From a virus (lineage: Duplodnaviria > Caudoviricetes): DNA of 26,157 bases. How positions within the stretch are numbered: the first letter of the stretch is position 1; every line of letters starts with the position of its first letter. This document shows, piece by piece, positions 6,594-24,043 of the stretch. The DNA is taken from the IMG/VR virus record IMGVR_UViG_3300035527_000120, positions 1-26,157 of that record, one strand, 5' to 3'. The notes under the pieces were generated by a model that ran no database searches, had not been told where the DNA came from, and worked only from the letters and a program-made list of their open reading frames with translations. Position numbers and translations under genes: made by a program.

Positions 6594-6941
6594 TTAATTA
6601 TTCTCCAAATTAACTACCGCTACCTCATAGTGATGGGCTTGGCCCGCAGCGTCCTCAACACCTACCACTCGATATTTCTTTCCGCCAAAATCTAAAACAT
6701 CATCCTCTTTTATATCTGCGGTAATTTTCATAAAAACCAAAAAACGTGTATATAATTTTTCGCCCCGTCTACTAAACTCAATCAACTCCTCTGTCTGTTG
6801 AAAGAGACATGGCTCATTATCCGACTTCTTCGTAAAAGACTCATCAGACGCACCCCACTCATCTACATTATCTGTATCAAATTCTCTTCGATAAATGTCA
6901 CAAGTCTGAGTTAATAAATCATTAAAAATTTCGTCTGACAT
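6594..6941 (-). CDS. Head-closure/head-tail joining protein (SPP1 gp16-like)
   Basis: 115 aa; DEWG, DIKEDDVLDFGGKKYRVVGVED...HHYEV pattern of head-closure proteins. Confidence 0.7.
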   Translation of the reverse strand: MSDEIFNDLLTQTCDIYRREFDTDNVDEWGASDESFTKKSDNEPCLFQQTEELIEFSRRGEKLYTRFLVFMKITADIKEDDVLDFGGKKYRVVGVEDAAGQAHHYEVAVVNLENN

Positions 6942-7561
6942 TATTTTACTCCAACAAATCTTTTTCTTTGTTTATCTATTAATATATGACACGAATCGCA
7001 TAATGTAATTCCATTAAATAAATTCCACAAAAATTTACAAGAATACGCCTCATCCAAAGTCTTTAACTTAAATCTTTTGATGATTTTTCTTAAACTAATT
7101 TTATGATGAACTTCTAAATTATTTGAATTACCACACTCCGTACAACAATAAGAATCTCTAATAAGAATTTTTCTTCTCCAAAATAAATATTTATCTGATT
7201 TTCTAATTAACTCAGAAATATTCGTAACACCACCCCGCCACGCTGGATTTCTTTCTCTTTGCTTAGAACATCTCATACAGTATTTATTTTTAGGATGTTT
7301 AAGTTTCTTACCACAATCTAAACAAAAGTTATTTAAACACCGACCATCTTTATATGCAGGAGCTTTCTTAGGGTTCGTTCTTACATATATTCTACGACAA
7401 TCTAAACAACGTATATACTCAGGTCTACCTAAAAGTTTTCCACAATCAATACAAGTATTTTTACCAGTATACCTATGATTACGAGAACCTTTTTGAAAAC
7501 ACTGTCTACAAAAAGTTGCCTTTTTAGAAATAATCTTATTACATTCCTGACATTTATTCAT
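6941..7561 (-). CDS. HNH homing endonuclease with multiple CxxC zinc-finger repeats
   Basis: Several CxxC pairs; NPAWRGG; RDSYCCTECG...LEVHH...NGITLCDSCH HNH core; AT-rich, sits between two head-tail genes. Confidence 0.85.
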   Translation of the reverse strand: MNKCQECNKIISKKATFCRQCFQKGSRNHRYTGKNTCIDCGKLLGRPEYIRCLDCRRIYVRTNPKKAPAYKDGRCLNNFCLDCGKKLKHPKNKYCMRCSKQRERNPAWRGGVTNISELIRKSDKYLFWRRKILIRDSYCCTECGNSNNLEVHHKISLRKIIKRFKLKTLDEAYSCKFLWNLFNGITLCDSCHILIDKQRKRFVGVK

Positions 7562-8217
7562 TATAAAATTCCATCCATGGTCATTTTACCATCATCACCA
7601 TTAATCATATCAACAATCCTATCCATCTCCGCCTCTAAAATCTTACGGTAATCATTAAGGTTTGCTGAAGCTGACCCAAATTGTTTTTGAAATTTTCCAA
7701 TCTTAATCATACGAACCTGCTGCACTTTATCCGGGGTGAAAATTCCCAGAGCTTTTGCAACACACAAAGCAACTAAATAATCATGGATATTCGTGTGTGT
7801 ATAGGCAGCAATCGTATAAGTAACCTCCACTAAATTCCCGCTTCCAAATCCACCGTCACTAATCCCTTTAGATGAATAAGGCTCACCGTCTAAGGTATGG
7901 GCTACACTACCAAACCCTCCACCATACCAGAGTAATCCGGTATCCGGGTTATATTTATAATTTGTGAACTCTGTTAAATTATCTACAGCCGTTCCATCAA
8001 TTTTAATCTCATCAATCGAAGCAATATTCGTATCGGGTAATTTAACCAAATTCGTCACCCGAGTAACATATTTTCGATAAGTCTTCTGGGTTGCGGTCTC
8101 CTGAAGATCCGTCATAAGAAAAAATTGCTTGGTGGCCCACGTATAAACAGAGTCAGAAATATCAGCCGTCTGAATCCCTAATACAGAAGCTACGTCTGCC
8201 TTACTTATCATTGCCAT
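7561..8217 (-). CDS. Head-tail adaptor/connector (gp6/gp15-like) with inserted beta domain
   Basis: Start reassigned to ATG 8217 (AAGGAGG RBS). MISKADVASVLGI N-terminal helix, VEVTY, and IKIGKFQKQF C-terminal hairpin typical of adaptors; precedes head closure. Confidence 0.6.
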   Translation of the reverse strand: MAMISKADVASVLGIQTADISDSVYTWATKQFFLMTDLQETATQKTYRKYVTRVTNLVKLPDTNIASIDEIKIDGTAVDNLTEFTNYKYNPDTGLLWYGGGFGSVAHTLDGEPYSSKGISDGGFGSGNLVEVTYTIAAYTHTNIHDYLVALCVAKALGIFTPDKVQQVRMIKIGKFQKQFGSASANLNDYRKILEAEMDRIVDMINGDDGKMTMDGIL

Positions 8218-8536
8218 GAGTCTCCTCCTTACGATCATCAATATATGGTCTCCGGTCTTTCACCAAAGAACCAAAAAATCTTTTCTGTTTTTCTTCATCA
8301 ATCGCTGGTTCAAATTTGATATAATCCCAATCATGTTCTTCCAGCCAATCCTTTGCCTCTTTGACTGTAAACTTATCAGAATCAAAACGAATAGACTGTA
8401 CCTCAGTCACATCCTCTTCATCTTTGATTCCATAAATAACATCAATACCATCTCCAAACTCATTATTCTTTCTACGGAAACGGTCGTACTGATCGGGATT
8501 TTTAATCCTTGCAGCGTGTTCACCTTTATAAGGCAT
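8201..8536 (-). CDS. Conserved phage head-region protein (PY..EHAAR..P domain)
   Basis: 111 aa; PYKGEHAARIKNP...QSIRFDSDKFTVKEAKDWLEEH, a motif I associate from memory with head-morphogenesis regions of environmental phages; function unknown. Confidence 0.5.
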   Translation of the reverse strand: MPYKGEHAARIKNPDQYDRFRRKNNEFGDGIDVIYGIKDEEDVTEVQSIRFDSDKFTVKEAKDWLEEHDWDYIKFEPAIDEEKQKRFFGSLVKDRRPYIDDRKEETHGNDK

Positions 8537-8538
8537 AA

Positions 8539-8967
8539 TTATTTCCTCTCCTGATATTTTTTAAACCAATCTAATTCCACTTTAGTATAGTTGGATTGAC
8601 AATTACAGCCTTTACCTCTTCTTGTATTTAACCGTAACTTTAAAAACTCAATAACCAATTCTGCCCGATTTCTTTTCTCAATTAAAAAAGGGAGAATCAA
8701 CTCCAAAAATTTTAATTTATCTTCCTGATGATTAATTATTAATACATAAAAAGGTTTCTTTCTCGGGGTTGGATCATCAAAAATATAGCCATAATCTAAC
8801 CAAGATTGAATATTTTCTAAAATTCTCCTATTAGTATTTCCAACCCGAACCACGATTTGATAGGATTTCTCACCTTTTCTTTTTCCTTTTCTACTATAAG
8901 GACTAACATGAATAGTTCCTTCACCATCAAAAAACCCGGCAATATATCCTATCTGTAACTCCGTCAT
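8539..8967 (-). CDS. LAGLIDADG homing endonuclease (single motif, free-standing)
   Basis: YIAGFFDGEGTI motif, VGNTN, FLELILPFLIEKRNRAEL C-terminal pattern. Confidence 0.9.
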   Translation of the reverse strand: MTELQIGYIAGFFDGEGTIHVSPYSRKGKRKGEKSYQIVVRVGNTNRRILENIQSWLDYGYIFDDPTPRKKPFYVLIINHQEDKLKFLELILPFLIEKRNRAELVIEFLKLRLNTRRGKGCNCQSNYTKVELDWFKKYQERK

Positions 8968-9410
8968 CGTCTACTCCCAGAAATAATGTAAAACCGCCAG
9001 TCCTCATAAGGAACAGTCCTAAATATCTCGGCCACAGTCTTCTTTTTATCAGGTAACGCTTCAAAATACCTTTTAGGTAAAAAGAGCATCCCCGCAAAAG
9101 TATAGGATTTATTGGTAGTGATCTTTTCGACCTCAAAATTAGGGCCAAAGAAAACCGTACCAAAAGTCTTCACCTTGCGAAGAACCATTAACGGTTTCGA
9201 CCTGTCTTTATTGATGTAGCCTAAAACCTTGTCCTGATCTATCTGAAACAGGGCTGAGTTTGAAACTACAATTAAATTTTCTTCATCCGGTTTAATTCGA
9301 GATAAGTCAACTTTTTCACCCAGATATTCACAATTTTCGAGGGTGTTTTTAAGGTGGGTCAATATGATCTTATCCCCGTAAGTGTGCTTTCCAAATATAA
9401 AACTTTTCAT
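8964..9410 (-). CDS. Hypothetical protein resembling a truncated/degenerate sugar-phosphate nucleotidyltransferase
   Basis: ENLIVVSNSAL...FGTVFF...VEKIT...FAGMLFL echoes the C-terminal half of the NTP_transferase fold, but the N-terminal GxGTR motif is absent. Confidence 0.4.
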   Translation of the reverse strand: MKSFIFGKHTYGDKIILTHLKNTLENCEYLGEKVDLSRIKPDEENLIVVSNSALFQIDQDKVLGYINKDRSKPLMVLRKVKTFGTVFFGPNFEVEKITTNKSYTFAGMLFLPKRYFEALPDKKKTVAEIFRTVPYEDWRFYIISGSRR

Positions 9411-9488: not shown

Positions 9489-10352
9489 TTACCCTATTTT
9501 GTCGCCAATTTTACCTAATTCTTCCCAAAAAAGGAAGTGAGCCCGCATCGTTTTTTCTCTAAAAGTCTTATAATCCCAACCATAAGACATTGCGCCAACC
9601 CGTTCATTTACTATCAACTTACATCCACAAAGGTATGCTTCACCCACAGCCCGCCCAAAAGATTCCTGATGAACCGGAATATGAATAAAATAAGCATACT
9701 TATTATAATTATTATATATTCCTTCTTTAGGAACATACCCGATTAAATTACAGTTCTTTAATGCCCGCAATTGCCGTAATAAAATACCACAATTTCGCTT
9801 ATAATAAAAATCAAAAATTAATTCAGGATGCTTCTTAGCATAATTAATAATATCATCCACACCCTTTCCCTGATGGATATTCCCAACAAACATAATCTTA
9901 TTCACCCGCTTCTGACCATTATCATAAAACGTATAAGGAATATGCGGTGGAACCAATAAAATATTATCCTCCTCAGAAATGAATTTCTTAAAACAGTCCC
10001 GATGCAATGGTGATAAAAATACTGCTGCTTCTGCGTTCTTAATCATATCTTGATTTTTTTCTAAAACCCTAATCCATCTACCCGAATCATGGGAATATAC
10101 CACATAAGGTTTCTCTGCCATTATTCTTTGTCTGGCTGGTTGAGGAAACTCATAACAGTTACTAAAAATAACCAAGTCACTTTTGTCTAACACATTAGAT
10201 CTTAAATCACATGGGCGACACACTTGAATATCATAACCCAATTGTTTTCCGGCCTGAATTACATAAGAGTCTGTTATCTCTGCGCCTCCCGCAGAAACCT
10301 CGGCGACCGTATAATCCGTAAGCCATAAAATTCTCCGACCCGCTAATTTCAT
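9489..10352 (-). CDS. Glycosyltransferase, GT4/GT-B family
   Basis: GGAEIT N-terminal motif, FVGNIHQGKG, and ESFGRAVGEAYLCG (E-x7-E signature). Confidence 0.9.
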   Translation of the reverse strand: MKLAGRRILWLTDYTVAEVSAGGAEITDSYVIQAGKQLGYDIQVCRPCDLRSNVLDKSDLVIFSNCYEFPQPARQRIMAEKPYVVYSHDSGRWIRVLEKNQDMIKNAEAAVFLSPLHRDCFKKFISEEDNILLVPPHIPYTFYDNGQKRVNKIMFVGNIHQGKGVDDIINYAKKHPELIFDFYYKRNCGILLRQLRALKNCNLIGYVPKEGIYNNYNKYAYFIHIPVHQESFGRAVGEAYLCGCKLIVNERVGAMSYGWDYKTFREKTMRAHFLFWEELGKIGDKIG

Positions 10353-10849
10353 TTCAATTTCTCCAAAATAACTTTATGGTTATAAAGACCAACTTCAGGA
10401 AAGTAATCTACGATTTTTAAATTTAACTTCTCCGCCATAAACTCAAAAAACTCCGGGGTTAAACAAACAAAATGATAATTAGATGGATAATCTTGTCCAC
10501 CAAATATTAACCGTGAAAACCGTGTTGTAGAATCTCCCTTATGTCTATTTATGATTTCATTTCTATCTGCATAAATTCTATCAATACTCGGAACCTGAAA
10601 CTCAATTTGTCCACCAATTTTTAAACAGCGTACCCACTCAGTAAAAACATCTTTTACTTTTGTATGAGAAAAATGCTCTAATACATCATGGGCCAGAATA
10701 TAATCAATAGTGTTAGTTTCAAATGCGGATAAGTCAGAAATATCCATACACATATCCGGGTTTACTTCTGGCCGAATATCAATATTGATAAAATCATCTA
10801 ACCGAATCTCTCCACAACCAAGATGTAATTTCTTCATCATAAACCTCAT
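10349..10849 (-). CDS. Class I SAM-dependent methyltransferase (Methyltransf_11-like)
   Basis: KLHLGCG, INIDI, AHDVLEHF, EWVRCLKIGG motifs; true start may be 10840 or 10837. Confidence 0.85.
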   Translation of the reverse strand: MRFMMKKLHLGCGEIRLDDFINIDIRPEVNPDMCMDISDLSAFETNTIDYILAHDVLEHFSHTKVKDVFTEWVRCLKIGGQIEFQVPSIDRIYADRNEIINRHKGDSTTRFSRLIFGGQDYPSNYHFVCLTPEFFEFMAEKLNLKIVDYFPEVGLYNHKVILEKLK

Positions 10850-11871
10850 TTATTAAAATATTTATTTCGTAACAATGTAGAACTAATTCCTTTTGTTCTA
10901 TTCAAATAAACCACAGGCACTCCGAGCCCTTCACCAGTAAATGTTTCTGGTGTCCAATCATTTCCGACAAAAATAACATCTGGCTGGTATTTTTCAACCA
11001 ACTCTTTCTTACCACAAGATAAACTTTGAACATCTACCACATCCACATATTTTATTGACTTTAAAATTTCAAGTCTATCTACTAAAGGTACCACAGAATT
11101 ATGTCCTTTAATTTTTTTAATGTATCTATCATCACTAACACAAACTATTAACCGAGTGCATAGAAGGCTCGCTTGTTTTAGTATGTTTAAATGACCTATA
11201 TGCCATAATTCAAAACTCCCAAAAGTGATACCTATTTTAAATTTTTTAAATGTATCTTTCTTTTTAGCATTACAAGAAATACATAAAGGTTGAATATTTG
11301 AAATATAATCATTTCCTCCCACAGATAAGGGAATAATATGGTCTTTAGTTAATTTGTGAAATGCAGGTCTCCCATAGACCTTAGATAAATCAGACTCATG
11401 TATACCACAAACAGCACACCGATAATTATATTTCTCTAATAATTTATTCCATTCTTTATTGGTATGAAAACCGATTACACCTTTCTTAATTAAAGCTCTT
11501 TTTCTATTATGAGAATAAATTAATTCTTTGTGTTCTTTCCTCCATAAAGCAATCTTTTGTTTTCCCTTTTTAGACTTAGCCCATTTCTTTGATTTTTCTA
11601 ACTGTCTAAAATAATACTCCGTTTTATTTTTACTGGCTTTTCTTTTAAATTCCCTATCATAATTCTTATAATATTCTCGTAATTTCTGACTTTTTCTATC
11701 TTTAATATATTGAACTTCTCGTTTCCATTTTAATCGTCTTTTATAAGAACAACCAACTTTATCTTTACGACTACCACAATACTTATGTCTTGGAGAATTA
11801 GCCATAAATTCTTTACCACAAGCTAAACAAATTTGTTTTCTCGGATAACCCCGCATGTTATACTTTGTCAT
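10846..11871 (-). CDS. Fusion: N-terminal HNH endonuclease + C-terminal TagD-like (glycerol-3-phosphate) cytidylyltransferase
   Basis: CAVCG...LTKDHIIPLSVGG...NIQPLCISCNAKK (HNH) followed in frame by GITFGSFELWHIGHLNIL...VGNDW...RTKGISST (HxGH cytidylyltransferase). Confidence 0.85.
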   Translation of the reverse strand: MTKYNMRGYPRKQICLACGKEFMANSPRHKYCGSRKDKVGCSYKRRLKWKREVQYIKDRKSQKLREYYKNYDREFKRKASKNKTEYYFRQLEKSKKWAKSKKGKQKIALWRKEHKELIYSHNRKRALIKKGVIGFHTNKEWNKLLEKYNYRCAVCGIHESDLSKVYGRPAFHKLTKDHIIPLSVGGNDYISNIQPLCISCNAKKKDTFKKFKIGITFGSFELWHIGHLNILKQASLLCTRLIVCVSDDRYIKKIKGHNSVVPLVDRLEILKSIKYVDVVDVQSLSCGKKELVEKYQPDVIFVGNDWTPETFTGEGLGVPVVYLNRTKGISSTLLRNKYFNK

Positions 11872-12559
11872 TACAATACTCCGATAATTTATCCTTAATC
11901 AAATTAATTTCATCCTGATTCTCATAAAAATGGTGCCATAAAACAGACTTCTCTTTTGGATAGGGAGCATACTTTGGTTTAGCCGGATACTTTGAAATAT
12001 CAAAACCTGCCAGCTTAACAATTCTCTGTTTCTCTACCTCATCCAAAATAAAGTCTTCAAAGCTAACAATATAAATCGCATCCCTATTCTTTCTTAATTT
12101 TGAAAAATAATTGGAAAATGTTTCTCTCTGTGTTCGGTATTCCTCAATAAATTTTTCTACACTGATTTCCCAACCATATTCAAGACAAAGTTCTCGGCGT
12201 CTTAACCATGTTGATCTTGGGTCTCTCATCACACAGAAAACCAATGTATTATCCAGCAACTCAACTCCGGGTAATGTTAAACAAGTCACCACATTATTCA
12301 GCAACAATATTGAGCCATCCAGCTTATCTTGAAATCTTTTCTCAGACTCTTCTTTGATCCGTTGATTCAAAATCTGTTTATACTTTTCAGAATTATTGAA
12401 ACCTTCTTTCTTCCATTTAGGGAATAACCCTCTCCGCCAAACCTTTGGTAATTCAGTTATCATACCACAAGTATTATCAAAACACCTAAAATAATCAAAC
12501 AGGGCGGATGACCCAGATGATGTTGTTCCAGCAAAAAGTATTTGTCGTTTTGGTTCCAT
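11858..12559 (-). CDS. Sulfotransferase-like protein
   Basis: ILFAGTTSSGSSAL (5'-PSB-like loop), VMRDPRS (3'-PB motif), IVSFEDF. Confidence 0.7.
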   Translation of the reverse strand: MEPKRQILFAGTTSSGSSALFDYFRCFDNTCGMITELPKVWRRGLFPKWKKEGFNNSEKYKQILNQRIKEESEKRFQDKLDGSILLLNNVVTCLTLPGVELLDNTLVFCVMRDPRSTWLRRRELCLEYGWEISVEKFIEEYRTQRETFSNYFSKLRKNRDAIYIVSFEDFILDEVEKQRIVKLAGFDISKYPAKPKYAPYPKEKSVLWHHFYENQDEINLIKDKLSEYCNDKV

Positions 12560-13173
12560 TATTTTACTTTCCTAAACTTTAAAATACGATGATGACGACG
12601 AGGAATTTCTCGTTCCAATTCAAAACCTTGAGGCTTAAATAACTTTAAATATGTCTTCCGGGTTCTTCTGTTGATATAAGGAAAATCTCCCCGGTATACA
12701 ATTTCACCATCTCCCACTTGTTCATTCATATAAACGCATCCACCAATCGGCAATATTTCAGAAAATCTTTTAACGAGCTTCGCTACGTATTTATCATCAG
12801 TAATATGCTGAATAACCACAGAGGTAAAAATAGCATCTGCCCTTAAAGAAACCTTCCAAAAATCCTCCACAGTATAAAATATTCTGGTCTTTGGGATCTT
12901 CCTTACAATATCTACACCGATGTAATTATCAAAAAATTTATTCAATAGATCTTCAAATCGACCAATACCACACCCGAAATCTATCACCGTTTCAGCCTTT
13001 TCAATAACACAAGAAAAACAATCCTTAATGTGCTGAGTATCAGTTTCATACTCCTTTAAAGGCGCAGACATTCTACCAACAACATGACGTTCTTCTCCCT
13101 TGAACTTCTCATATTTAGTCTGCCAAAATTGGCTCATCTTTTTTTGATATGTATTAAACTTTGCTTTGTCCAT
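12559..13173 (-). CDS. Class I SAM-dependent methyltransferase
   Basis: VIDFGCGIGR, YIGVDI, FTSVVIQHI, ILPIGG; start reassigned to ATG 13173 directly after the upstream stop. Confidence 0.85.
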   Translation of the reverse strand: MDKAKFNTYQKKMSQFWQTKYEKFKGEERHVVGRMSAPLKEYETDTQHIKDCFSCVIEKAETVIDFGCGIGRFEDLLNKFFDNYIGVDIVRKIPKTRIFYTVEDFWKVSLRADAIFTSVVIQHITDDKYVAKLVKRFSEILPIGGCVYMNEQVGDGEIVYRGDFPYINRRTRKTYLKLFKPQGFELEREIPRRHHRILKFRKVK

Positions 13174-13174
13174 T

Positions 13175-13909
13175 TTACCACCCAAAATTCTTACCAATTA
13201 ATTTATATAACTTTTGATTTTCAGAATCAAAAATATTTTTCAATAGTTGAGTAACTTCTTTGGTTCTTGGTACAGCATACTTTAATTGATGATGTTTTGG
13301 GTAAACTTTTAAATCCACCCTATTTAATCCTAAAAACTGAAATACTTCATTACAAATCTTTTTAGAATTTATACTTAATTCATTACTATCAATAATTAGA
13401 AACTGACCCTTGTCGTAATACTTAAGCCACTGAATCAAATTTCTATAATAAAGACTGTGCCAAATAAAAGTCGTTTTACCGGGCTGAGTAAAACCATTCG
13501 CTTGTAATTCCCTTAACTCATCATCTAAATACTCCTTAAAAGATCGCTTATGTTTCTCTGGATACTTTACAACTGCATGATTAAAATGAGAATAAGCTCT
13601 ATCAATTGGATTCCTAAAACAAAGAATAAATTTAGGATTGATTTTAGATTCTTTCAGCCTCGGAATTACTTTTTTAGCCCGGCAAAAATATTGAACGCAG
13701 GCTTCACCCGTAATTTCACCTTCAGCACATCTGGGGAATAAAGACCGATAATACTTGATTCCTTTCCTTGTATAATCTTCTCGATAGAAAAAGTGTAACT
13801 CCTTTTGTTTAGCCGATAAAATTTTTGGGTGTTGTATTAAATATTGATACAACGCTGTCGTTCCACACTTCATTTCACCCAAGATTAAAAAATCTGGTTT
13901 GGAGCCCAT
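13175..13909 (-). CDS. PAPS-dependent sulfotransferase (Sulfotransfer_1; motifs like heparan-sulfate-type sulfotransferases)
   Basis: PDFLILGEMKCGTTAL (5'-PSB), KELHFF, FRNPIDRAYSHF (3'-PB), EVFQFLGL. Confidence 0.9.
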   Translation of the reverse strand: MGSKPDFLILGEMKCGTTALYQYLIQHPKILSAKQKELHFFYREDYTRKGIKYYRSLFPRCAEGEITGEACVQYFCRAKKVIPRLKESKINPKFILCFRNPIDRAYSHFNHAVVKYPEKHKRSFKEYLDDELRELQANGFTQPGKTTFIWHSLYYRNLIQWLKYYDKGQFLIIDSNELSINSKKICNEVFQFLGLNRVDLKVYPKHHQLKYAVPRTKEVTQLLKNIFDSENQKLYKLIGKNFGW

Positions 13910-14661
13910 TAAACTAATCCTCGCCTATCTAAATATTCTAATACTGTATCAACACTGTCTGAGACCGCTTCTGTTCCAGTTGAAACCACAACCTGTGGAT
14001 TCATGGGCCTCTCATACGGAGCATCAAAACCAGTAAAACCTTTTATCTTTCCTTTTTTAGCCTGCTTCCACATACCTTTAACATCTCTTCGAGCACACTC
14101 TTCAGGAGTACAGGCCACATAAACTTCGATAAAATTTCCACCAATCTCACGACGAACATCATTTCTGTCTTTCTGGTAAGGTGAAACAAAACTACAAAGA
14201 ACCACAGTTTTATTTCTGCTTAATAATTTGGAAACAAAGGCAATCCTGGCTAAATTTTTCTTCCGATCTTCGGCACTAAATCCCAGATCAGAACAAAGAC
14301 TTTTACGGACAATATCACCATCTAATCTCTCAACACACTTCCCTCTCAATCTTAAGCGTTCAGCCAGTGCATCAGCAATGGTACTCTTACCCGAACAAGG
14401 TAATCCCGTAAACCACACCACACAACCCTCTGTCTGAACGGTCGTATCAAACTTTAAAGAAAATAAACATTCATAAATATAATACAATAGCATATTCACC
14501 ATGTTCCAAAGAATAGAAATGTTCAAGGCCCCTGAAAAATCATTAACAGAAAAGTGCGTCAAATATGCTTTAGTAAAGATAGCCTGAATAAAAATAATTG
14601 CTACCCGATACAAAAGAGTTTTACTAAAAACTATTTTATGATTGATTTTTCTTTTGTTCAT
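13909..14661 (-). CDS. cysC: Adenylyl-sulfate (APS) kinase with N-terminal hydrophobic DUF2061-like domain
   Basis: VWFTGLPCSGKSTIA, LDGDIVR, DLGFSAEDRKKN, FVSPY, RDVKG, FTGFDAPYERP; N-terminal SKTLLYR...YYIYE hydrophobic segment. Confidence 0.93.
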   Translation of the reverse strand: MNKRKINHKIVFSKTLLYRVAIIFIQAIFTKAYLTHFSVNDFSGALNISILWNMVNMLLYYIYECLFSLKFDTTVQTEGCVVWFTGLPCSGKSTIADALAERLRLRGKCVERLDGDIVRKSLCSDLGFSAEDRKKNLARIAFVSKLLSRNKTVVLCSFVSPYQKDRNDVRREIGGNFIEVYVACTPEECARRDVKGMWKQAKKGKIKGFTGFDAPYERPMNPQVVVSTGTEAVSDSVDTVLEYLDRRGLV

Positions 14662-15010
14662 TTTTCTTCCTCATCTTAGTACCACTGATTGACTCAAGAT
14701 TTTCTGACAACCTTACCTCCCGGATTTTCCAACCCGGTGTTCGACCATAAACAACCTCAACCACATCTGGTAAGTCAATAATCTTAACAGAACCTCTCAT
14801 AATCTCTCGCTTAAAAATATTCTCAAATGCAATACGTCGATCAATTGAGGTATATGGATTCTTTTCAGAGAGGTCTGCTTCTCTCAATGCGATACAAACA
14901 TTCTTACCTTCTCGCAACAAAGTCCGAATCAATTCAACATGACCATCATGCGGAGGAATACACTGGAATCTTCCAATCACCAAAGAATATTCTTTATGAT
15001 TCAACTTCAC
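14636..15010 (-). CDS. Small HxGH nucleotidyltransferase (NMNAT/cytidylyltransferase-like; candidate minimal sulfate adenylyltransferase)
   Basis: IGRFQCIPPHDGH, KNPY, VVYGR, ISGTKMR; likely GTG start at 15010 after GGAGG; overlaps the start of cysC. Confidence 0.75.
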   Translation of the reverse strand: MKLNHKEYSLVIGRFQCIPPHDGHVELIRTLLREGKNVCIALREADLSEKNPYTSIDRRIAFENIFKREIMRGSVKIIDLPDVVEVVYGRTPGWKIREVRLSENLESISGTKMRKKNEQKKNQS

Positions 15011-15797
15011 GATAGCCCTCCGTTTCTTCACCCTTACCTTTAAGATGCAGCCTATAAATATCATCCACAGCTAACGCTGCCTCAAATATCACATTGTTCT
15101 GAAAAAATTTATTAATAAATTTACAATCCTTTGGGAGACACTTTCCGCCAATTCCATTGCGGGCCTCTTTCAAATCAATATTCCATTTAGTATTCATAGC
15201 AGCCCTTAAATGATCGAAAGAAATTCCTTTCTCTTCACACATCATTTTTATCTCTTCTGCAATAGCAATCTCAATATAACGATATGCGTTCTCCAACGGT
15301 TTTGATAACTCAGCAATTTCCGGTTCAACAATAAATAATCTTTTATTTGAAATGAACTCTCCATAAAAAGAAAGAGCCTTCATTAATGCCTCTTCATCAT
15401 AGGCACTGATGAGTCTATTAAGATTAAACACATGATGCTCAGGATCTTTTGGATTATACCTATGCGGAAATAAAACCAATTTAATCCCCGGATAATCCTC
15501 CACCATCTTTTTTGTCTCACCCGGTTGAAGAGTCGATTCAATTACAACCAAAGGTTTACGTTTTAAATTAATTTGAGATATAACATCTCTAATTTGCTGA
15601 GGCGTATAAACAGAAATAATATAAACATCTGCCTCTGATGGGATTACCTTTCCAATCTGATATTTTCCGTCAGGATTAATTTCTTTAATACGAGAATCCA
15701 AAACCTCTACACCAATCATCTCGTGATTTTTAGATTTTGAAATCTCCTTAAAAGTTTCCCAACCAATCTCACCTAATCCAATGACACAAACTTTCAT
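14994..15797 (-). CDS. UDP-glucose/GDP-mannose dehydrogenase family NDP-sugar 6-dehydrogenase (short, lacks C-terminal domain)
   Basis: VIGLGEIG Rossmann motif, IESTLQPG, AELSKPLENAYR, GIGGKCLPKD catalytic Cys; only 267 aa. Confidence 0.88.
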   Translation of the reverse strand: MKVCVIGLGEIGWETFKEISKSKNHEMIGVEVLDSRIKEINPDGKYQIGKVIPSEADVYIISVYTPQQIRDVISQINLKRKPLVVIESTLQPGETKKMVEDYPGIKLVLFPHRYNPKDPEHHVFNLNRLISAYDEEALMKALSFYGEFISNKRLFIVEPEIAELSKPLENAYRYIEIAIAEEIKMMCEEKGISFDHLRAAMNTKWNIDLKEARNGIGGKCLPKDCKFINKFFQNNVIFEAALAVDDIYRLHLKGKGEETEGYREVES

Positions 15798-18168
15798 TTT
15801 TTAATCCTTTCAAAATATTACAATAAACTTGATGAACAGAAATTTTATCTATATTCACACAGGTCTTATGGCCTTCTTTACACTTACTGCTCCATCCATG
15901 AACACGCCACCAACAGGAGGGACAATCTCCGTGATAAATATTTATATTATCTCGATAACTGTATAATGTTGGCGTGGTCGGGCCGAATAAAACTACACTC
16001 TTAATTCCTACGGCATGTGCAAGATGAACAAGGCCACCCTCATTACTAACATGTAAATCGCTTTGTTTTAAAACATACATCAAATCAATAAGATTTTCAC
16101 ACTTTATTTTTCTGGCCCCAGATAAATCAGTATCTTTTTCATTTCCCAACTGAATAATCTCATAACCCTTTTTCTTTAAAAGCTCAATTAACTCTTCCCA
16201 CTTTTCATTAGGCCATAATTTTAAAACACCAACATTCTGGTCACAACCTGAACTTACTGTGATATACTTATCTGGTAAATTATATTTATTTTTCAAAACA
16301 GTTTCCACATCTGGTTTATCAATTAAAGGAATCTTTAAATCTTCAGCAGTTAATTCTAAATCCGTTTTGTGTGCGTAATATTGAAAGGTTTGTCCATTCC
16401 AGTTTTCTAAAATATGCCCGGTAGATTTTTGCCAATTATTATAGAGCTCTTCATCCAACTCTCTCTGTAAAGATTTATCATAGTTATACCAAACATAAGG
16501 ATATGGTCTAAACTCATAAATAACATCATAATAATCTTTAATGCTATCAAAAGTTTTCTTCCAACTTAAACGAGAATATTGTGCTCGAATATCAGGATAG
16601 TCAAAAATAAAAGCCTGTACCTGACTAATATCCCGCACAAACGCATCAATCTGACATCCGGGATATTTTCTTTTCATAGCCCGACACAAATAACCCAACA
16701 TTACCGCATCTCCCATACCACCCATCCAAAATGCTGCTATCTTTTTGGAGGGATCTGGTTTAATCTTGACTACTTTGGCCGGAAGATCTTCTTCGCAAAT
16801 CTTTTCTGGTGGGGCCGGGATATATTCAGATTCCGAAACCTTAATCCTCTCAGATTCTTTCTGTGCTCTTAATCTAAAAAATTCATCAACATCTTTATAA
16901 ACCTGATCCCAATTATGGTACGTATAACAAGATTTATCGTGGCACTTCCATTCCTTTGAGCATACAAACTGCTTTGCTACACAAGGAAAACAACTGACAT
17001 TCGGCGTATACGTCGTACAATTTTTATACGTGCTGCATCTCCATTCAGGCTTAAAATAATTCATTAAACAGAAAGTTGTTTTATTGAACGCTCCCGCAAC
17101 ATGTAAAAAAGATGTGTCCACAGTCACAACGCAATCCATTAACGAAACCAAGGCAAACATTTCTCTCAATTCTAATTTTTTATTCAGGTCAATACAATTT
17201 GTATATGAGCGTCTACGATTAGAGGTAACAAAAACTGTATAACCTCTGGCCTTTAATTTATTAATTACTTCTTGAGTTATATCACTCGGAAGTTTTGAGT
17301 CCACTCTGGCACTATCATAACCAAGAAAAATTTTCTTTTGATAAGGAGCCCATTTTCTCTGAGCATTATTTTGTTCATCCTTTGTTAAAATAATCTCCGG
17401 CCTATCTATAACCAAATCCTCTGGCCGAAGTCCACATAATTCTGCCACCGAATAAATACGGTTTTGTTTATTAAAATCTTGTCGATAATCATTTAAAAGT
17501 TGTCCAAAATTTAGATAGATAACTTTTTTGAATCTGGAAATATCTACTTCATTCCTCCGGGAATAAAAGCCTTTAATGTAAGGTAAATTATGATAACACG
17601 GATTCCTATGCTCATCACAGAGCACATAAACATTATTGCCTCTCTCAGCCAATGTTTTTAAAGAAGGAATAGTTAAAAGATGATCGCCCACACCGCCAAA
17701 AACCTCGACGAGAATATTATCTTTATTCTTTTCATAATTATCAGATAAACGACTTAAGTCTCTATCTTTACGGATAATAGGGATAAAATATTTTGTAAAA
17801 CTGGAAAACGCCTCAGCTAATTTATTTGCGCTCCGGGTAGCATAAACAGAGGCGAATTGAAGCGGGTTCATAAAAAGCGTATGAATAAACCATTTATCTG
17901 GGGTTTCTAAGTAGTGGATATGCGGGTCGATAACAGGATCTTCTGGCATCTTATCACAAACATAAACAACACCAAGATCATTTTTTATTGCGGAGTGAAT
18001 AATCGAAGGCATACGTGGGCCGTCATGCAAATGACTTATAAAAGCCACAATGACAGACTTCCCTTGTGGGGACGGAATAATATATCCTTTTTGTTTCTGG
18101 AAATTTTCTTTCCCGGGATTGGGAACGAAGGTAAGAATTTCATCACTAATTAAACGAATTGCAGCCAT
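15769..18168 (-). CDS. Tandem double GT9 (heptosyltransferase-like) glycosyltransferase with extra N-terminal domain
   Basis: Two GT9 modules: GGVGDHLLTIP...VDTSFLHVAGAF...CFPC and GGMGDAVM...NEGGLVHLAHAVGIKSVVLFGPT...CPSCW; ATG 18168 after GGAGG. Confidence 0.88.
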   Translation of the reverse strand: MAAIRLISDEILTFVPNPGKENFQKQKGYIIPSPQGKSVIVAFISHLHDGPRMPSIIHSAIKNDLGVVYVCDKMPEDPVIDPHIHYLETPDKWFIHTLFMNPLQFASVYATRSANKLAEAFSSFTKYFIPIIRKDRDLSRLSDNYEKNKDNILVEVFGGVGDHLLTIPSLKTLAERGNNVYVLCDEHRNPCYHNLPYIKGFYSRRNEVDISRFKKVIYLNFGQLLNDYRQDFNKQNRIYSVAELCGLRPEDLVIDRPEIILTKDEQNNAQRKWAPYQKKIFLGYDSARVDSKLPSDITQEVINKLKARGYTVFVTSNRRRSYTNCIDLNKKLELREMFALVSLMDCVVTVDTSFLHVAGAFNKTTFCLMNYFKPEWRCSTYKNCTTYTPNVSCFPCVAKQFVCSKEWKCHDKSCYTYHNWDQVYKDVDEFFRLRAQKESERIKVSESEYIPAPPEKICEEDLPAKVVKIKPDPSKKIAAFWMGGMGDAVMLGYLCRAMKRKYPGCQIDAFVRDISQVQAFIFDYPDIRAQYSRLSWKKTFDSIKDYYDVIYEFRPYPYVWYNYDKSLQRELDEELYNNWQKSTGHILENWNGQTFQYYAHKTDLELTAEDLKIPLIDKPDVETVLKNKYNLPDKYITVSSGCDQNVGVLKLWPNEKWEELIELLKKKGYEIIQLGNEKDTDLSGARKIKCENLIDLMYVLKQSDLHVSNEGGLVHLAHAVGIKSVVLFGPTTPTLYSYRDNINIYHGDCPSCWWRVHGWSSKCKEGHKTCVNIDKISVHQVYCNILKGLKNESLCHWIR

Positions 18169-18208
18169 CAATTTCCTCCATCAATTTATTGAGGTCAAGT
18201 TTCAAGGT

Positions 18209-18238
18209 AAAACGGGTAGGGGATAAAACCCCTACCCG
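18209..18238 (-). terminator. Intrinsic terminator after major capsid gene
   Basis: 10-bp stem CGGGTAGGGG/CCCCTACCCG (18213-18222/18229-18238), 6-nt loop, followed on the minus strand by a short UUUU tract. Confidence 0.8.
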
Positions 18239-18254
18239 ACTAATTTCATCAAGA

Positions 18255-19193
18255 TTACGAGCTTGCTTTTTGGACGGTGATAAGACCTTCACTCTTATTG
18301 CTACCATTCACATAGGCCCAAACAAAGTCGAACCAGTAGGTAACAACCAAGAGGTCAGCCCTACGACCCGCCTTGTGTTCCACGTCAACCTCGATATTTC
18401 CGTAGTATCCAGCGAAAGCACCCTTCATATTCGCTAAGATAGCTTTCTCACCCGTGATGTTCAAGCGACGGATAAGCGGAATACCGTGGATGTGAACCAC
18501 TCGGCGCAAACCAAGAGCCGGAACATCGTCGATGTCATATCCAACCATGTCCTTATCGGCAGATTTCTTGGCAGCAGTCACGAAGTCAGCAGAACCCAAC
18601 AGCACCAAGTCTTCAACATCTTCCTCAGAACCGTAAACACCAAGGTCATTCTGGGCTTCCGCCACAGCGTCCAAGATATTTTGGGCGTTAGAGGTTGTGT
18701 ATTCAACCGGAGAGTTAGCAGCGTTCGCTGTATTCGCCAGCTTTTCGATACCATCAGCGATAGTGAGAGTGTTAGTCGCACCACCCGCACCAGTATCACC
18801 CTTCAGTGCAATCTTATCAGCAGTACGAGCGATAGCCCGGCTGATTTTGTTGCGGAACAACTGATCGAGCTTAAGCTCAGGATACTGAGCCACCTGCTTT
18901 TTCTTCAAGTAGATGTAAGTACCCAATTCGACAGGTTCCAAGTCAGGAGACTTGATGTCGAAGCTCATTTCGGTCAGAGTAGTAATATCCGCCGTATTGT
19001 CGATTCGATAGACCTTATCAAGATCCTCTTCACCGATAACAGGAATAGTACCCTCATTCACGATTTCGATCAACTGATCCCGAGAATCAACCATGCGAAG
19101 AACCAAAGATTTTTCGATGGCGTCGTGAACAATTTTGTCTACCAATTCTTTAGGCAGATTGGTTGCTGATCCAGCAGGAATTACGAAATCCAT
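18255..19193 (-). CDS. Major capsid protein (HK97 fold)
   Basis: 312 aa directly after protease; LPKELVDKIV, ISRAIARTADKIALKGD, IHGIPL patterns typical of HK97-fold capsids; strong AAGGAGG RBS; terminator follows. Confidence 0.85.
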   Translation of the reverse strand: MDFVIPAGSATNLPKELVDKIVHDAIEKSLVLRMVDSRDQLIEIVNEGTIPVIGEEDLDKVYRIDNTADITTLTEMSFDIKSPDLEPVELGTYIYLKKKQVAQYPELKLDQLFRNKISRAIARTADKIALKGDTGAGGATNTLTIADGIEKLANTANAANSPVEYTTSNAQNILDAVAEAQNDLGVYGSEEDVEDLVLLGSADFVTAAKKSADKDMVGYDIDDVPALGLRRVVHIHGIPLIRRLNITGEKAILANMKGAFAGYYGNIEVDVEHKAGRRADLLVVTYWFDFVWAYVNGSNKSEGLITVQKASS

Positions 19194-19248: not shown

Positions 19249-20574
19249 TTAACGATTTCCACGCAGGTAATTACTAAACCACGTGTCAGGATTATGGCCC
19301 TTTCTTTTCTGGGCTGCGTCCCGAACCTTATCTATGTTATCAACATCGAGGGTTTCTTTGATTTCATCCAAGATCTTTGAAACACGAGACATCTCATTGA
19401 TCTTTTCTTCCATCTTAGCCAACCTCTCCGATAACTCTTGATTTCTCTGAGTAAGTTCATCGACTTTGGTTTCGAGAGCCTTTTTATCATCAGGTTTTTG
19501 CTCTTCTTCTGTTTCCTTGTCGGTTTCCTTGGCGACGGTCTCAGATTCATCAGATTCCTCTTCCGCTTCTTCAGCTTCAGCCTCATCTTCAGCTTCCTCT
19601 TCAGGGTCTTCCTCTTCGGACTCTTCCTCTTCAGATTCTTCCTCAGTTTCTTCCGGGGCTTCCTCGGATTCCTCTTCGGATGATTCAGTTTCTTCCTCGG
19701 ATTCTTCATCTTCTTCAGGAGTTTCCTCCTCTTCAGATTCAGTCTCTTCGGTAGATTCCTCTTCAGCCGGAGCCTCTTCCTCTTCCTCGGCTTCTTCTTC
19801 AGATTTATTTGAATCGGGAACCTCTTCGCCTTCAGGCTTATCTTCTTTTGGTTCCTCGTTTTCTTCCGTCGCTTCTTCCTCAGTTTGATCTTCTTCAGGT
19901 TTTTCTTCTTCTTCGTCACGTCGTAACATTTCCCGAACATCCATCTCTTTCGCAGACTTTTCGTCCACCAAACCTCTGGTAACCAATTCACGCTTATACT
20001 TCTCTGCGCCATCAGCACTTAAGGCTTCAGGGTTTCCGGGAACCGGAACAGCCGAATACTCAAGCAGCTCCCATTTATAAATGAGGTAGACACCCCAGAA
20101 ATCAGCATCATCAATCTGTTCTCTGGTGACGCTCAGACCATACTTCTTATTAAGGTCTTCCATGTTCTCCTCATCGTACCGTTTATACTTCAACGGCATG
20201 AATCCAATTGACCAAGCGTGTAAGAATCCATCCTTGTAGGCGTTGAACACTTTCACAGCCAACGGATCATTCTTGTTAAACTCAGTCGTGGTAACAATTT
20301 CATCCTCACGAATGTCCAAATCAACACATCGACCGATAGGGATTTTCGGTGTGGCTTCATCCATATTATGAGACCACAAAACGACAGCATTATTCAAAAA
20401 ATGCTTAACGTCAGCACCCTTTGGTAACACGATGGTGCTATAACGATCAAGTGCCTTCGTATTAATGGTATGAGTAATCGTTAGATTAGCTTCATCCACT
20501 TCACGGATGGACGTTCGGAGAAATCCATTTCTTTTCTTATTCAGTTCCATTAATTTATCCTCCTTAGTTTCCAT
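19249..20574 (-). CDS. HK97-type prohead protease fused to acidic linker and coiled-coil scaffold-like tail
   Basis: DRYSTIV, NAVVLWSHN, PIGR, AWSIGF, ELLEYSAVPVPGNPEAL protease motifs; ~140 aa Glu-rich low-complexity segment; C-terminal coiled coil. Confidence 0.9.
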   Translation of the reverse strand: METKEDKLMELNKKRNGFLRTSIREVDEANLTITHTINTKALDRYSTIVLPKGADVKHFLNNAVVLWSHNMDEATPKIPIGRCVDLDIREDEIVTTTEFNKNDPLAVKVFNAYKDGFLHAWSIGFMPLKYKRYDEENMEDLNKKYGLSVTREQIDDADFWGVYLIYKWELLEYSAVPVPGNPEALSADGAEKYKRELVTRGLVDEKSAKEMDVREMLRRDEEEEKPEEDQTEEEATEENEEPKEDKPEGEEVPDSNKSEEEAEEEEEAPAEEESTEETESEEEETPEEDEESEEETESSEEESEEAPEETEEESEEEESEEEDPEEEAEDEAEAEEAEEESDESETVAKETDKETEEEQKPDDKKALETKVDELTQRNQELSERLAKMEEKINEMSRVSKILDEIKETLDVDNIDKVRDAAQKRKGHNPDTWFSNYLRGNR

Positions 20575-22811: not shown

Positions 22812-23315
22812 TTAATATTCATCATATTGAATTGTATACTCTATTTCAAAATTTCCTGTCTCTGCCGTAGATAATACTTCTAATTGAAATACCAACCAAG
22901 AAGAATAATCTCCAACATCTGTTAGGGTACCGTCTAAACTAATTGAGTTACCCTCTGAATTTTTTGTATCAAATTCCACCCGGGTTCCTCGGGTAGATTG
23001 AATGTTTACCGGAGCCTGATAAGAATTAATCACGTCGCTATTCACTGTTAGGTTATATCCCGACGCTGGCATACCACTATCATACCACGCTTTAATACTA
23101 TCAACACGAACATTGGGAGCTAAGTCACAACGTAAACGAATCCAGACCTCATAAGAATACCTCGTTCCTGCTTCTGGAACCGTCATCGGGCTGGCCGTCT
23201 TATTTACCGTAGCACTATCTTGCTGGATTAAATAAGAAATATTTTTTGCGACTTCTTGAGCAGCACCCGCATAACTCTGGCCCGCATTTTGTACAATACT
23301 GATAACACTGCTCAT
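22812..23315 (-). CDS. Putative virion structural protein
   Basis: 167 aa Ser/Thr-rich beta protein, YSYEVWIRL...IKAW...YDEY; family recognition is tentative. Confidence 0.5.
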   Translation of the reverse strand: MSSVISIVQNAGQSYAGAAQEVAKNISYLIQQDSATVNKTASPMTVPEAGTRYSYEVWIRLRCDLAPNVRVDSIKAWYDSGMPASGYNLTVNSDVINSYQAPVNIQSTRGTRVEFDTKNSEGNSISLDGTLTDVGDYSSWLVFQLEVLSTAETGNFEIEYTIQYDEY

Positions 23316-24043
23316 ATTACCTCCTGTATCTTCTCAGATAGATTATTGGCACCAATAATTTCAGATTCCCAAAAAACAATTGTTTTATACCCCGCCTCAG
23401 AATAAACCAACAACCTTCTCTTATCAGCCTTTTTATATCTTGGTAAATTATGCCAATAATCTCCAAAAACTTCTATAATTATTTTTCTTTCTTTATTTAC
23501 AAAATCTGGATTAAAAGATTCAATAAAGAATTTTCCATCACCTGCATACTCAAAACCAAATTGTTTTAGAAAAGGTTCAATTATCTTTTCTGGTTTTGTT
23601 TTTTTATGGGATTGTGCCTTTCGTGAATTTTTAATCCTATTAATTTTCCAAGATTTATTTCTATTCAACTCTCTTTGAAATTGACTCATTTTTAAATGTT
23701 CTTCTGGCTTATTCCAACGGACTTTTCTTTTCAAATCAAATTTACGCTTTACTTCTGGTCTATTCATCACTAAACTGCATACTTCACTTCTTGATCGCCT
23801 ATTAACCCCTATTTGATCTAATCTCCTAGCAATAGTATTGCTACTTATACCAAACTGCTTTTCAAGTTGTATTGTAGATTGTCCGGCCAAATATAATTTC
23901 TTTACTTTATTAATATTAAACTTAATCCTTTTCCTACCGCCAGACTGATCCTTAGATAATTGTTTTCCCTTATTCCAAGGAACATTACCCTGTTTAAATT
24001 GTGTATCTTGTCTACTCATAATCTTATTCACTTGGTTTATCAC
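23312..24043 (-). CDS. Vsr/DUF559-like (EDxHD-type) homing endonuclease with NUMOD3-like and HTH DNA-binding modules
   Basis: FKQGNVPWNKG (NUMOD-like), STIQLEKQFGISSNTIARRL (HTH), TKPE...PDF...IEVFGDYWH...GYKTIVFWESEI; true start may be 24019. Confidence 0.8.
   Translation of the reverse strand: MINQVNKIMSRQDTQFKQGNVPWNKGKQLSKDQSGGRKRIKFNINKVKKLYLAGQSTIQLEKQFGISSNTIARRLDQIGVNRRSRSEVCSLVMNRPEVKRKFDLKRKVRWNKPEEHLKMSQFQRELNRNKSWKINRIKNSRKAQSHKKTKPEKIIEPFLKQFGFEYAGDGKFFIESFNPDFVNKERKIIIEVFGDYWHNLPRYKKADKRRLLVYSEAGYKTIVFWESEIIGANNLSEKIQEVI

Follow-up and report, generated by a model that had tools for sequence, protein, structure and literature searches.

The locus

The window analysed here is the whole of a linear virus record of 26,157 bases (IMGVR_UViG_3300035527_000120), estimated by CheckV to be 29% complete, and the gene in question is a small open reading frame (ORF) on its minus strand at 15010-14636. 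The ORF has a GTG start and encodes a 124-aa HxGH nucleotidyltransferase with the motifs GRFQ..PHDGH, VVYGR and ISGTKMR. Its stop overlaps the ATG of cysC, the gene for an adenosine 5′-phosphosulfate (APS) kinase, by 26 nt, and the stop of cysC in turn overlaps the ATG of a sulfotransferase gene (13175-13909) by 1 nt. An earlier sequence-only reading, confined to 13909..15010, had described such a protein overlapping the start of cysC, with cysC abutting a sulfotransferase gene, in a cassette free of sat and cysDN. The gene arrangement is borne out, and neither Sat (PF01747) nor CysD (TIGR02039) is found on the contig as far as it is preserved. The sulfotransferase gene itself lies outside the interval of that reading, which also overlooked a hydrophobic extension of CysC and a sulfotransferase-like ORF at 11858-12559.

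The 124-aa form is favoured over one starting from an ATG at 15064, which was rejected as the start, because a GGAGG sequence stands 6 nt upstream of the GTG; P0002, a relative with 90% identity, uses the same start. The CysC protein scores 206.9 bits against TIGR00455 (cut-off 138.7), retains the P-loop, the LDGD motif and the lid, and aligns with the canonical Bacillus and Parabacteroides enzymes. The part of cysC overlapped by the small gene encodes a hydrophobic extension of about 70 residues that weakly resembles DUF2061, and similar DUF2061-like pieces exist as separate small genes in related loci. The sulfotransferase scores 67.2 bits against PF00685 (cut-off 22), and its nearest solved relatives are heparan sulfate 3-O-sulfotransferases (PDB 1t8t, E 5e-19). 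The small protein matches PF01467 right at the cut-off. Together with CysC it matches the two halves of PHROG 10255, annotated as a kinase, at E-values of 2.8e-10 and 2.3e-11.

A large unnamed family

By sequence comparison, the small protein is a member of a large unnamed family. Near relatives of 110-172 aa were found among 39 of 58 candidates at E<=0.001, and a profile search returned 642 cluster representatives at E<=1e-10, the weak end of which may include NadM, and 70 at E<=1e-30; the small ORF therefore appears to be a real gene and not a chance reading frame. Across 104 aligned domains the residues G13, R14, H24, P52, G89 and R90 are invariant, while Q16, P19, H21, G23, R43, G93, I108, S109, T111 and R114 are conserved in at least 90%. 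The sequence-only reading had expected that such proteins would be mislabelled as NMN adenylyltransferases or cytidylyltransferases, and the source labels on the relatives agree, being "cytidyltransferase-like protein", "nicotinamide mononucleotide adenylyltransferase" or plain "adenylyl-sulfate kinase". In the Atlas, the closest clusters consist of 96-100% viral sequences and are either unnamed or labelled "cytidylyltransferase-like". No description of the family was found in the literature searched, from which most subscription journals are missing; PMC2211403 gave no mention of a sulfurylase being absent, and PMC10434257 concerns PAPS reductase and has no bearing on the family. The proposed reaction and the superfamily are already known, whereas the family itself is new to description.

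Relationship to NadM and Sat

The closest solved sequences are all NadM-type NMN adenylyltransferases (NMNATs), with a profile E-value of 2e-14 to 1f9a. In hhalign, the family aligns with NadM over 112 columns at 99.7% probability and an E-value of 1e-25, using seven archaeal NadM sequences from the 7 of 12 loci that came through a motif filter. The alignment with Sat reaches 33.6% over 37 columns only, with 25 Sat sequences that had all been chosen by the presence of QTRN, a motif that precedes HxxH and has a sulfate-binding role in Sat. All three NadM motifs, GRxQ..HxGH, NP..ER and SGT..R, are present in the family. At the same time, the small protein falls far below the NadM models, with 21.9 bits against TIGR01527 (cut-off 181.2) and 30.2 against PRK01153 (cut-off 127). 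In an unrooted tree of 55 rows, the 41 family members separate from the 14 NadM rows at 99/96 support.

Relative to NadM, the family lacks about 24 residues after the third strand and before the SGT motif. The deleted stretch contains the position of W82, which is invariant in 13/13 NadM-Nudix sequences; the helix with the invariant Trp serves in NadM for nicotinamide stacking. At this site the 104 family rows have a four-residue spacer in 77 cases and other lengths in 15, the remaining 12 being unparsed, and the family-specific invariant motif GR.[VP]G[WY] stands in place of the missing stretch.

The sequence-only reading had argued for a relationship to Sat from shared GRD and ISGT..R elements, and of this argument the common superfamily stands. 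ISGT..R is not diagnostic of Sat, since SGT..R occurs in NadM too, and the family VVYGR was not paired with the GRD of Sat in any hhalign alignment, local or global. The small protein gave no PF01747 or PUA-domain hit; two relatives match positions 29-90 of PF01747 at 15 and 12 bits, below the cut-off of 24.3. The estimate that Sat is roughly three times longer is accurate, the Sat of locus L170 having 382 aa.

The model predicted from the 104-sequence alignment has a pLDDT of 93.9; in it and in a model from 39 sequences three strands were assigned, with segment 81-102 left unaccounted for. Its closest fold matches are PPAT (Z 10.1) and NadM (Z 10.0, 9.4 and 9.3; the best with an rmsd of 2.9 over 110 aligned residues), followed by NadR (8.5) and the Thermus Sat 1v47 (Z 7.6, rmsd 3.3, 115 aligned). 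Matches of TagD size scored 7.4 (2b7l) and 8.0 (5x3d), and Foldseek gave no match at E<=0.001. The predicted HUP fold says nothing on the substrate.

A trimmed Sat was rejected as an identity on the basis of the 112-column NadM alignment as opposed to the 37-column Sat alignment and the absence of QTRN. NMNAT was likewise rejected as a default label, given the deleted Trp stretch and the lack of linkage to Nampt (0/69 loci). The small protein is thus a relative of the NadM-type NMNATs and not a shortened Sat, although it may work like Sat. According to PMC6957218, ATP sulfurylase has the site of NMNATase with the nicotinamide pocket closed, which makes a switch from an NMNAT-like enzyme to a sulfurylase plausible.

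Association with APS kinase in viral genomes

The forward set comprised the best 80 of 380 IMG/VR hits and 3 of 13 cultured-phage records, and 69 of these 83 loci remained after 14 near-duplicates were dropped. An APS-kinase-like partner is fused to the small domain in 20 of them, lies within 400 nt in 40 and within 3 kb in 6, and is absent from three; the sequence-only reading had asked about just such co-occurrence or fusion with cysC. One of the three kinase-less loci is a complete 104-kb genome with an APS kinase and a sulfotransferase elsewhere, and the other two are fragments in which no kinase was found. Among 67 further metagenome loci a kinase is present in 51, and 15 of the 16 kinase-less ones have less than 3 kb of flank on one side. 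As a control, 80 true viral NadM-Nudix loci were taken, of which 67 remained after 13 duplicates were dropped. The two sets compare as follows: a kinase is present in 66/69 family loci as opposed to 1/67 controls, a sulfotransferase in the flank of 24/69 as opposed to 0/67, and Nampt within 3 kb of 0/69 as opposed to 55/67. Locus L138 has both systems: NadM-Nudix is complete and paired with Nampt, and the small protein lies apart from them, close to an APS kinase. At another locus (L008:5118-5981), a gene of the TauE/SafE sulfite-exporter family immediately precedes the small gene and cysC.

In 50 whole viral records with the family, mostly from longer contigs and including 10 IMG/VR records that are at least 90% complete, neither Sat nor CysD/PAPS reductase (PF01507) exceeded its cut-off (0/50 each). 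A PF13469 sulfotransferase was matched in 21 of the 50, in 15 over the cut-off, and in 7 of the 10 complete ones. The reverse count started from a Bacillus CysC query, the best 80 of 310 viral matches giving 51 dereplicated loci. The family is found at 24 of these, CysD at 2 and Sat at none, with no locus combining the family with CysD or Sat and 25 having neither. Whole records, covering 48 of the 51 viral CysC loci, had Sat in 0/48 and a CysD-like protein in 3/48, and the family occurs in none of those three.

Fusions and partner kinases

Of 80 long forms of the small protein, 62 contain PF01583, a further 13 match NadM-Nudix in part, and the remaining 5 are fusions of other kinds; the additional partners of the small domain are a sulfotransferase, DUF2061 and DHH-DHHA1. 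Among 150 representatives the kinase comes first in 28 and the nucleotidyltransferase in 24. Both orders are scattered over a poorly resolved tree, clustering no more than in shuffles, and the starred branches require a minimum of 2-3 changes each. The DHH-DHHA1 fusions are P0194 and P0086; DHH-DHHA1 proteins include pAp phosphatases.

Many of the partner kinases are short. Lid-less APS-kinase-like proteins of 96-150 aa are found, among others, at L023:6504-6827, L032:6308-6643 and L042:2088-2408, and the short partners match APS-kinase models below the cut-off. A different arrangement is seen at L214:5950-6912, L218, L219, L220, L222, L229, L250 and L256, mostly long viral contigs, where a canonical APS kinase with an extra C-terminal domain of about 120 residues is followed by the small nucleotidyltransferase. 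The extra domain, HAD-like in L214, could be a pyrophosphatase or a PAP phosphatase.

Copies in cellular genomes

The kinase-nucleotidyltransferase fusion (for example WP_227356187.1) is present on 10 plasmid records of cultured haloarchaea, and its kinase passes the APS-kinase cut-off. The gene order on the three plasmids examined (L165:6533-9612, L166 and L167) is sulfotransferase, fusion and YqcI/YcgG in 3/3 cases, and a search of these three plasmids gave no Sat or CysD. The product of the haloarchaeal cassette may be a sulfated small molecule. Proteins with the family domain also occur in metagenome-assembled genomes of Omnitrophota, Chlamydiae and Hyphomicrobiales. When genome contigs were scanned with the small protein by itself, the one match was spurious and 25 residues long. 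In 301 genomes sampled from a single archaeal phylum, to which G048 belongs, there were N-terminal NadM matches only (profile 2-81) and no full family member.

A further case is the Microvirga lotononidis plasmid NZ_CP141049.1 (L168:6292-11830), where a fusion of a lid-less kinase and the small domain lies between a sulfotransferase gene and CysD/CysN, which follow it directly; the cluster is Nod-like, and its upstream genes look to us like nodC, nodI and nodJ. The CysN has a C-terminal DUF2061 in place of an APS kinase. The small domain has lost the profile positions G18, P47, R85 and R109, each at least 97% conserved in 268 sequences. Such decay beside CysDN would fit redundancy of the small domain, and it suggests true APS kinase activity for the lid-less partner. 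Elsewhere among bacteria, a SAR11 study (PMC3448164) gives a predicted sat in HTCC9565 only among the strains compared, and mentions aprBA and an APS kinase; no SAR11 name came up when the family's clusters were looked up.

The surrounding cassette

The genes around the small ORF form a cassette that is flanked on one side by the capsid gene (18255-19193) and on the other by the head-tail adaptor region (Table 1). The 3′ end of the nucleotide-sugar dehydrogenase-like gene overlaps the GTG start of the small gene by 17 nt, and similarly short dehydrogenase-like forms are seen in L062 and L079. At least half of the sequence words of the window are present in six public runs labelled oil field metagenome, one of which may be the source of the window. 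Over 12900-16000, contigs from four public runs are identical to it letter for letter where they cover it, with no single piece running across the whole stretch.

Table 1. Features of the cassette and its upstream boundary in the 26,157-base window.
Feature	Coordinates	Strand	Basis
Small HxGH nucleotidyltransferase, 124 aa, NadM-related; candidate minimal ATP sulfurylase	14636..15010	-	conserved motifs, family profile, predicted model
GGAGG ribosome-binding site, 6 nt before GTG start	15017..15021	-	sequence
cysC ORF, 250 aa; hydrophobic N-terminal extension followed by a canonical APS kinase (aa ~73-244, lid intact)	13909..14661	-	PF01583 E 5.6e-59; TIGR00455
DUF2061-like hydrophobic segment, CysC aa 13-66	14464..14625	-	weak: E 7.5e-5 against a local 5-sequence profile; no Pfam hit
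PAPS-dependent sulfotransferase	13175..13909	-	PF00685 E 2e-18
SAM-dependent methyltransferase	12559..13197	-	PF13489 E 3.5e-10
Second, diverged sulfotransferase-like protein (lead only)	11858..12559	-	ESM Atlas features 0.96-0.97 to sulfotransferase clusters; no Pfam hit; local profile E 0.012 only
HNH endonuclease fused in frame to a separate TagD/HldE-like cytidylyltransferase domain	10846..11871	-	PF14279; PF01467 E 3.8e-15; TIGR02199, TIGR01518 below cut-off
Methyltransferase	10349..10849	-	PF08241
GT1-like glycosyltransferase	9489..10352	-	PF00534 E 7e-6, just under cut-off
Nucleotide-sugar dehydrogenase-like protein, 267 aa, without C-terminal domain hit	14994..15797	-	PF00984, PF03721; TIGR03026 below cut-off
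800-aa protein with two GT9 (heptosyltransferase-like) stretches	15769..18171	-	PF01075 E 2e-25, 2 stretches
Terminator-like hairpin between capsid gene and cassette	18213..18238	-	10-bp stem, T tail
Major capsid protein; upstream cassette boundary	18255..19193	-	PF05065

The long ORFs of the window are on the minus strand, and genes for a head protease, the major capsid protein, head completion, the tail tube and the tape measure are among them. The head protease (19249-20574) has a very long acidic, Glu-rich C-terminal region, which is probably a fused scaffold. Terminator-like sites in the window show no overall excess (7 as opposed to 6.0 in shuffles), and a promoter scan of the window gave no signal, with 37 sites as opposed to 43.2. 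Homing-endonuclease-like genes are represented by the HNH-cytidylyltransferase fusion (10846-11871), a LAGLIDADG gene (8539-8967), a zinc-ribbon/HNH-like ORF (6941-7561) and a Vsr-like nuclease (23312-24043). The ORFs 8964-9410 and 8201-8536, which close the cassette, have no Pfam or PHROG match.

Discussion

The protein encoded at 15010-14636 is an HxGH nucleotidyltransferase that has conserved motifs, lacks the Trp helix of NadM and is coupled to an APS kinase. From the genomic context and the sequence, it is likely to be a minimal ATP sulfurylase that makes APS for the synthesis of 3′-phosphoadenosine 5′-phosphosulfate (PAPS), and to have arisen from or beside the NadM-type NMNATs and not from Sat. 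The sequence-only reading had also proposed a two-gene PAPS synthase in which the small protein supplies APS. Its motif argument is weak, as described above, and strong support comes instead from the genomic context, namely the kinase fusions and adjacency, the lack of co-occurrence with Sat or CysD in the viral sets and the missing link to Nampt, from which the function is inferred. To our knowledge, two families of ATP sulfurylases have been recognised, Sat and CysDN. With slightly less assurance, we favour a broader interpretation in which the family is a third kind of ATP sulfurylase of about 115 residues, derived from the NadM branch by loss of the nicotinamide-binding helix. It would be the usual viral route to an APS supply of their own (24/51 viral CysC loci, compared with 2 for CysD and 0 for Sat), would also be present in haloarchaea and some bacteria, and with lid-less kinases of about 110 residues would form PAPS synthases down to about 210-250 residues, while the phage of this window would gain the means to sulfate glycans of its own, which are probably virion glycans.

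The ATP-binding half is kept in the motifs GRxQ..HxGH, NP..ER and IS[AG]T.xR, and the proposed mechanism would proceed as follows. First, the small protein would join sulfate to the AMP of ATP, giving APS and pyrophosphate; the residues R14, R43 and R90 are candidate anion ligands judging from their conservation. Next, the co-translated or fused APS kinase would pull APS on to PAPS, the formation of APS from ATP and sulfate having an unfavourable equilibrium. Finally, one or more sulfotransferases would transfer the sulfate of PAPS to a glycan that the glycosyltransferases of the cassette assemble. That the sulfated glycan decorates the virion is a guess, proposed because the cassette sits between the capsid and head-tail genes.

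Compared with the known systems, NadM (MJ0541, PDB 1f9a; M. thermautotrophicus 1ej2; NadM-Nudix 2qjo and 2qjt; TIGR01527) is the closest by sequence and among the closest folds, and has GRxQ..HxGH, NP..ER and SGT..R in common with the family. The family differs from it in being about 24 residues shorter, in having GR.[VP]G[WY] and no invariant Trp, and in its linkage to APS kinase and not Nampt. Sat (PF01747; Thermus 1v47, yeast 1j70) belongs to the same HUP/HxGH superfamily and catalyses the same proposed reaction; its HxxH residues correspond to the conserved H21/G23/H24, and Sat-APS kinase fusions (human PAPSS1 1x6v, Aquifex 2gks) resemble the family in being joined in either order. The family is, however, one third the length of Sat and has no N-terminal domain. 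The GTP-coupled CysD/CysN (NodP/NodQ) is found, like the family, next to APS kinase and sulfotransferase genes, but no CysD model matches the family, and a GTPase subunit accompanies it at the Microvirga locus only, where the small domain has decayed. PHROG 10255, from Sano- and Salvo-type phages, is the fused form in cultured phages; it is annotated only as a kinase or hypothetical, its kinase is lid-less and diverged, and no function is stated for its second domain.

Several observations weigh against an ATP sulfurylase. The sequence and fold are nearer to NadM and PPAT (Z 10.1, 10.0 and 9.4) than to Sat (Z 7.6), and the QTRN motif of Sat is absent from the family, which has GR[FWY]Q instead. 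A full lid is present in only 13/66 partner kinases and missing in 53/66, and the most diverged partners miss the APS-kinase models, the kinase of L051 having no NCBIfam hit. At L309:615-2188 a NadM-Nudix gene directly precedes a kinase of the diverged, lid-less type, and the ORF list shows neither a small nucleotidyltransferase nor Nampt; in phage Sano (L082:5552-7321) a NADAR gene precedes the fusion; this subgroup with diverged kinases may have another function. The nearest sulfotransferase signal in Sano is weak (E 4e-4), and phage Suzuki (L084) likewise has a NADAR gene and a weakly sulfotransferase-like gene before the fusion. No sulfotransferase is found in the flanks of 45/69 family loci, nor a PF13469 match in 29/50 whole records. 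Family loci were the source of both the kinase and the sulfotransferase profile, and the loci are not independent of one another; Fisher p-values for the comparisons with the NadM control overstate the difference, so plain counts are given in their place. Furthermore, 25/51 viral CysC loci have neither the family nor CysD, and a full family copy is present elsewhere in 0/26 such records. Viral CysC can therefore lack a sulfurylase of its own, and the absence of sat from a phage proves little; phages with CysC alone could presumably use host APS. Finally, the decay argument concerns the single Microvirga locus.

Some of these points would suit an accessory part of a PAPS module that binds or recycles APS or PAP, with the APS coming from the host, or a pair that makes a 3′-phosphorylated nucleotide-anion other than PAPS, for which the APS-kinase-like Cj1415 of the Campylobacter phosphoramidate pathway offers a precedent. 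Such a role would account equally well for the tight kinase coupling, and the half of viral CysC loci without any sulfurylase, the 53/66 kinases without a full lid and the DHH-DHHA1 fusions, which point to general nucleotide housekeeping, speak for it. It appears unlikely to us, however, in view of the catalytic residues expected of an HxGH enzyme that splits NTPs, all of them conserved at 94% or more, and of the kinases of the window and the haloarchaea, which pass the APS-kinase cut-off and have a PAPS-type sulfotransferase as consumer. The lack of CysD co-occurrence in viral loci and the decay beside CysDN in Microvirga point the same way, and no PEP-utiliser-type enzyme is found among 243 scanned neighbours.

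A stripped NMN adenylyltransferase that forms, with a P-loop kinase, a NadR-like pair for NAD salvage or reconstitution would agree with the best NCBIfam, PDB-sequence and profile matches, all of them to NadM, with the two-domain logic and fold (Z 8.5) of NadR, and with the NADAR gene before the Sano fusion and the diverged L309 kinase behind NadM-Nudix. It is nevertheless highly improbable given the score far below the TIGR01527 cut-off, the deletion of the stretch with the otherwise invariant Trp, Nampt within 3 kb of 0/69 loci compared with 55/67 for NadM, the 99/96 split of the tree, the presence of both systems in L138 and the canonical APS kinase that is the partner in the window.

Equally remote is a sugar- or polyol-phosphate cytidylyl- or adenylyltransferase that serves the glycan cassette and meets cysC only through shared surface-glycan clusters: the PF01467 match at the cut-off, the TagD-like size and the many glycosyltransferases and epimerases among the neighbours would fit it, but the small protein has no hit to TIGR01518 or TIGR02199 at E<=0.01, both of which the separate TagD/HldE-like domain at 10846-11871 does match, and the linkage is specific to the kinase, with fusions in both orders, and extends to T4-like replication regions and Sano-like early regions whose scanned flanks are free of glycan genes.

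If the small protein is indeed an ATP sulfurylase, sulfate activation would have to be read differently from genomes, as organisms and viruses that are taken to lack the step may encode it under "cytidyltransferase" labels or in long "adenylyl-sulfate kinase" entries. The family would also provide a clean case of a substrate switch within the HxGH superfamily, and biotechnology would gain a very small component for making PAPS. For the viruses that carry it, the context of the family points to phage-encoded sulfation of glycans.

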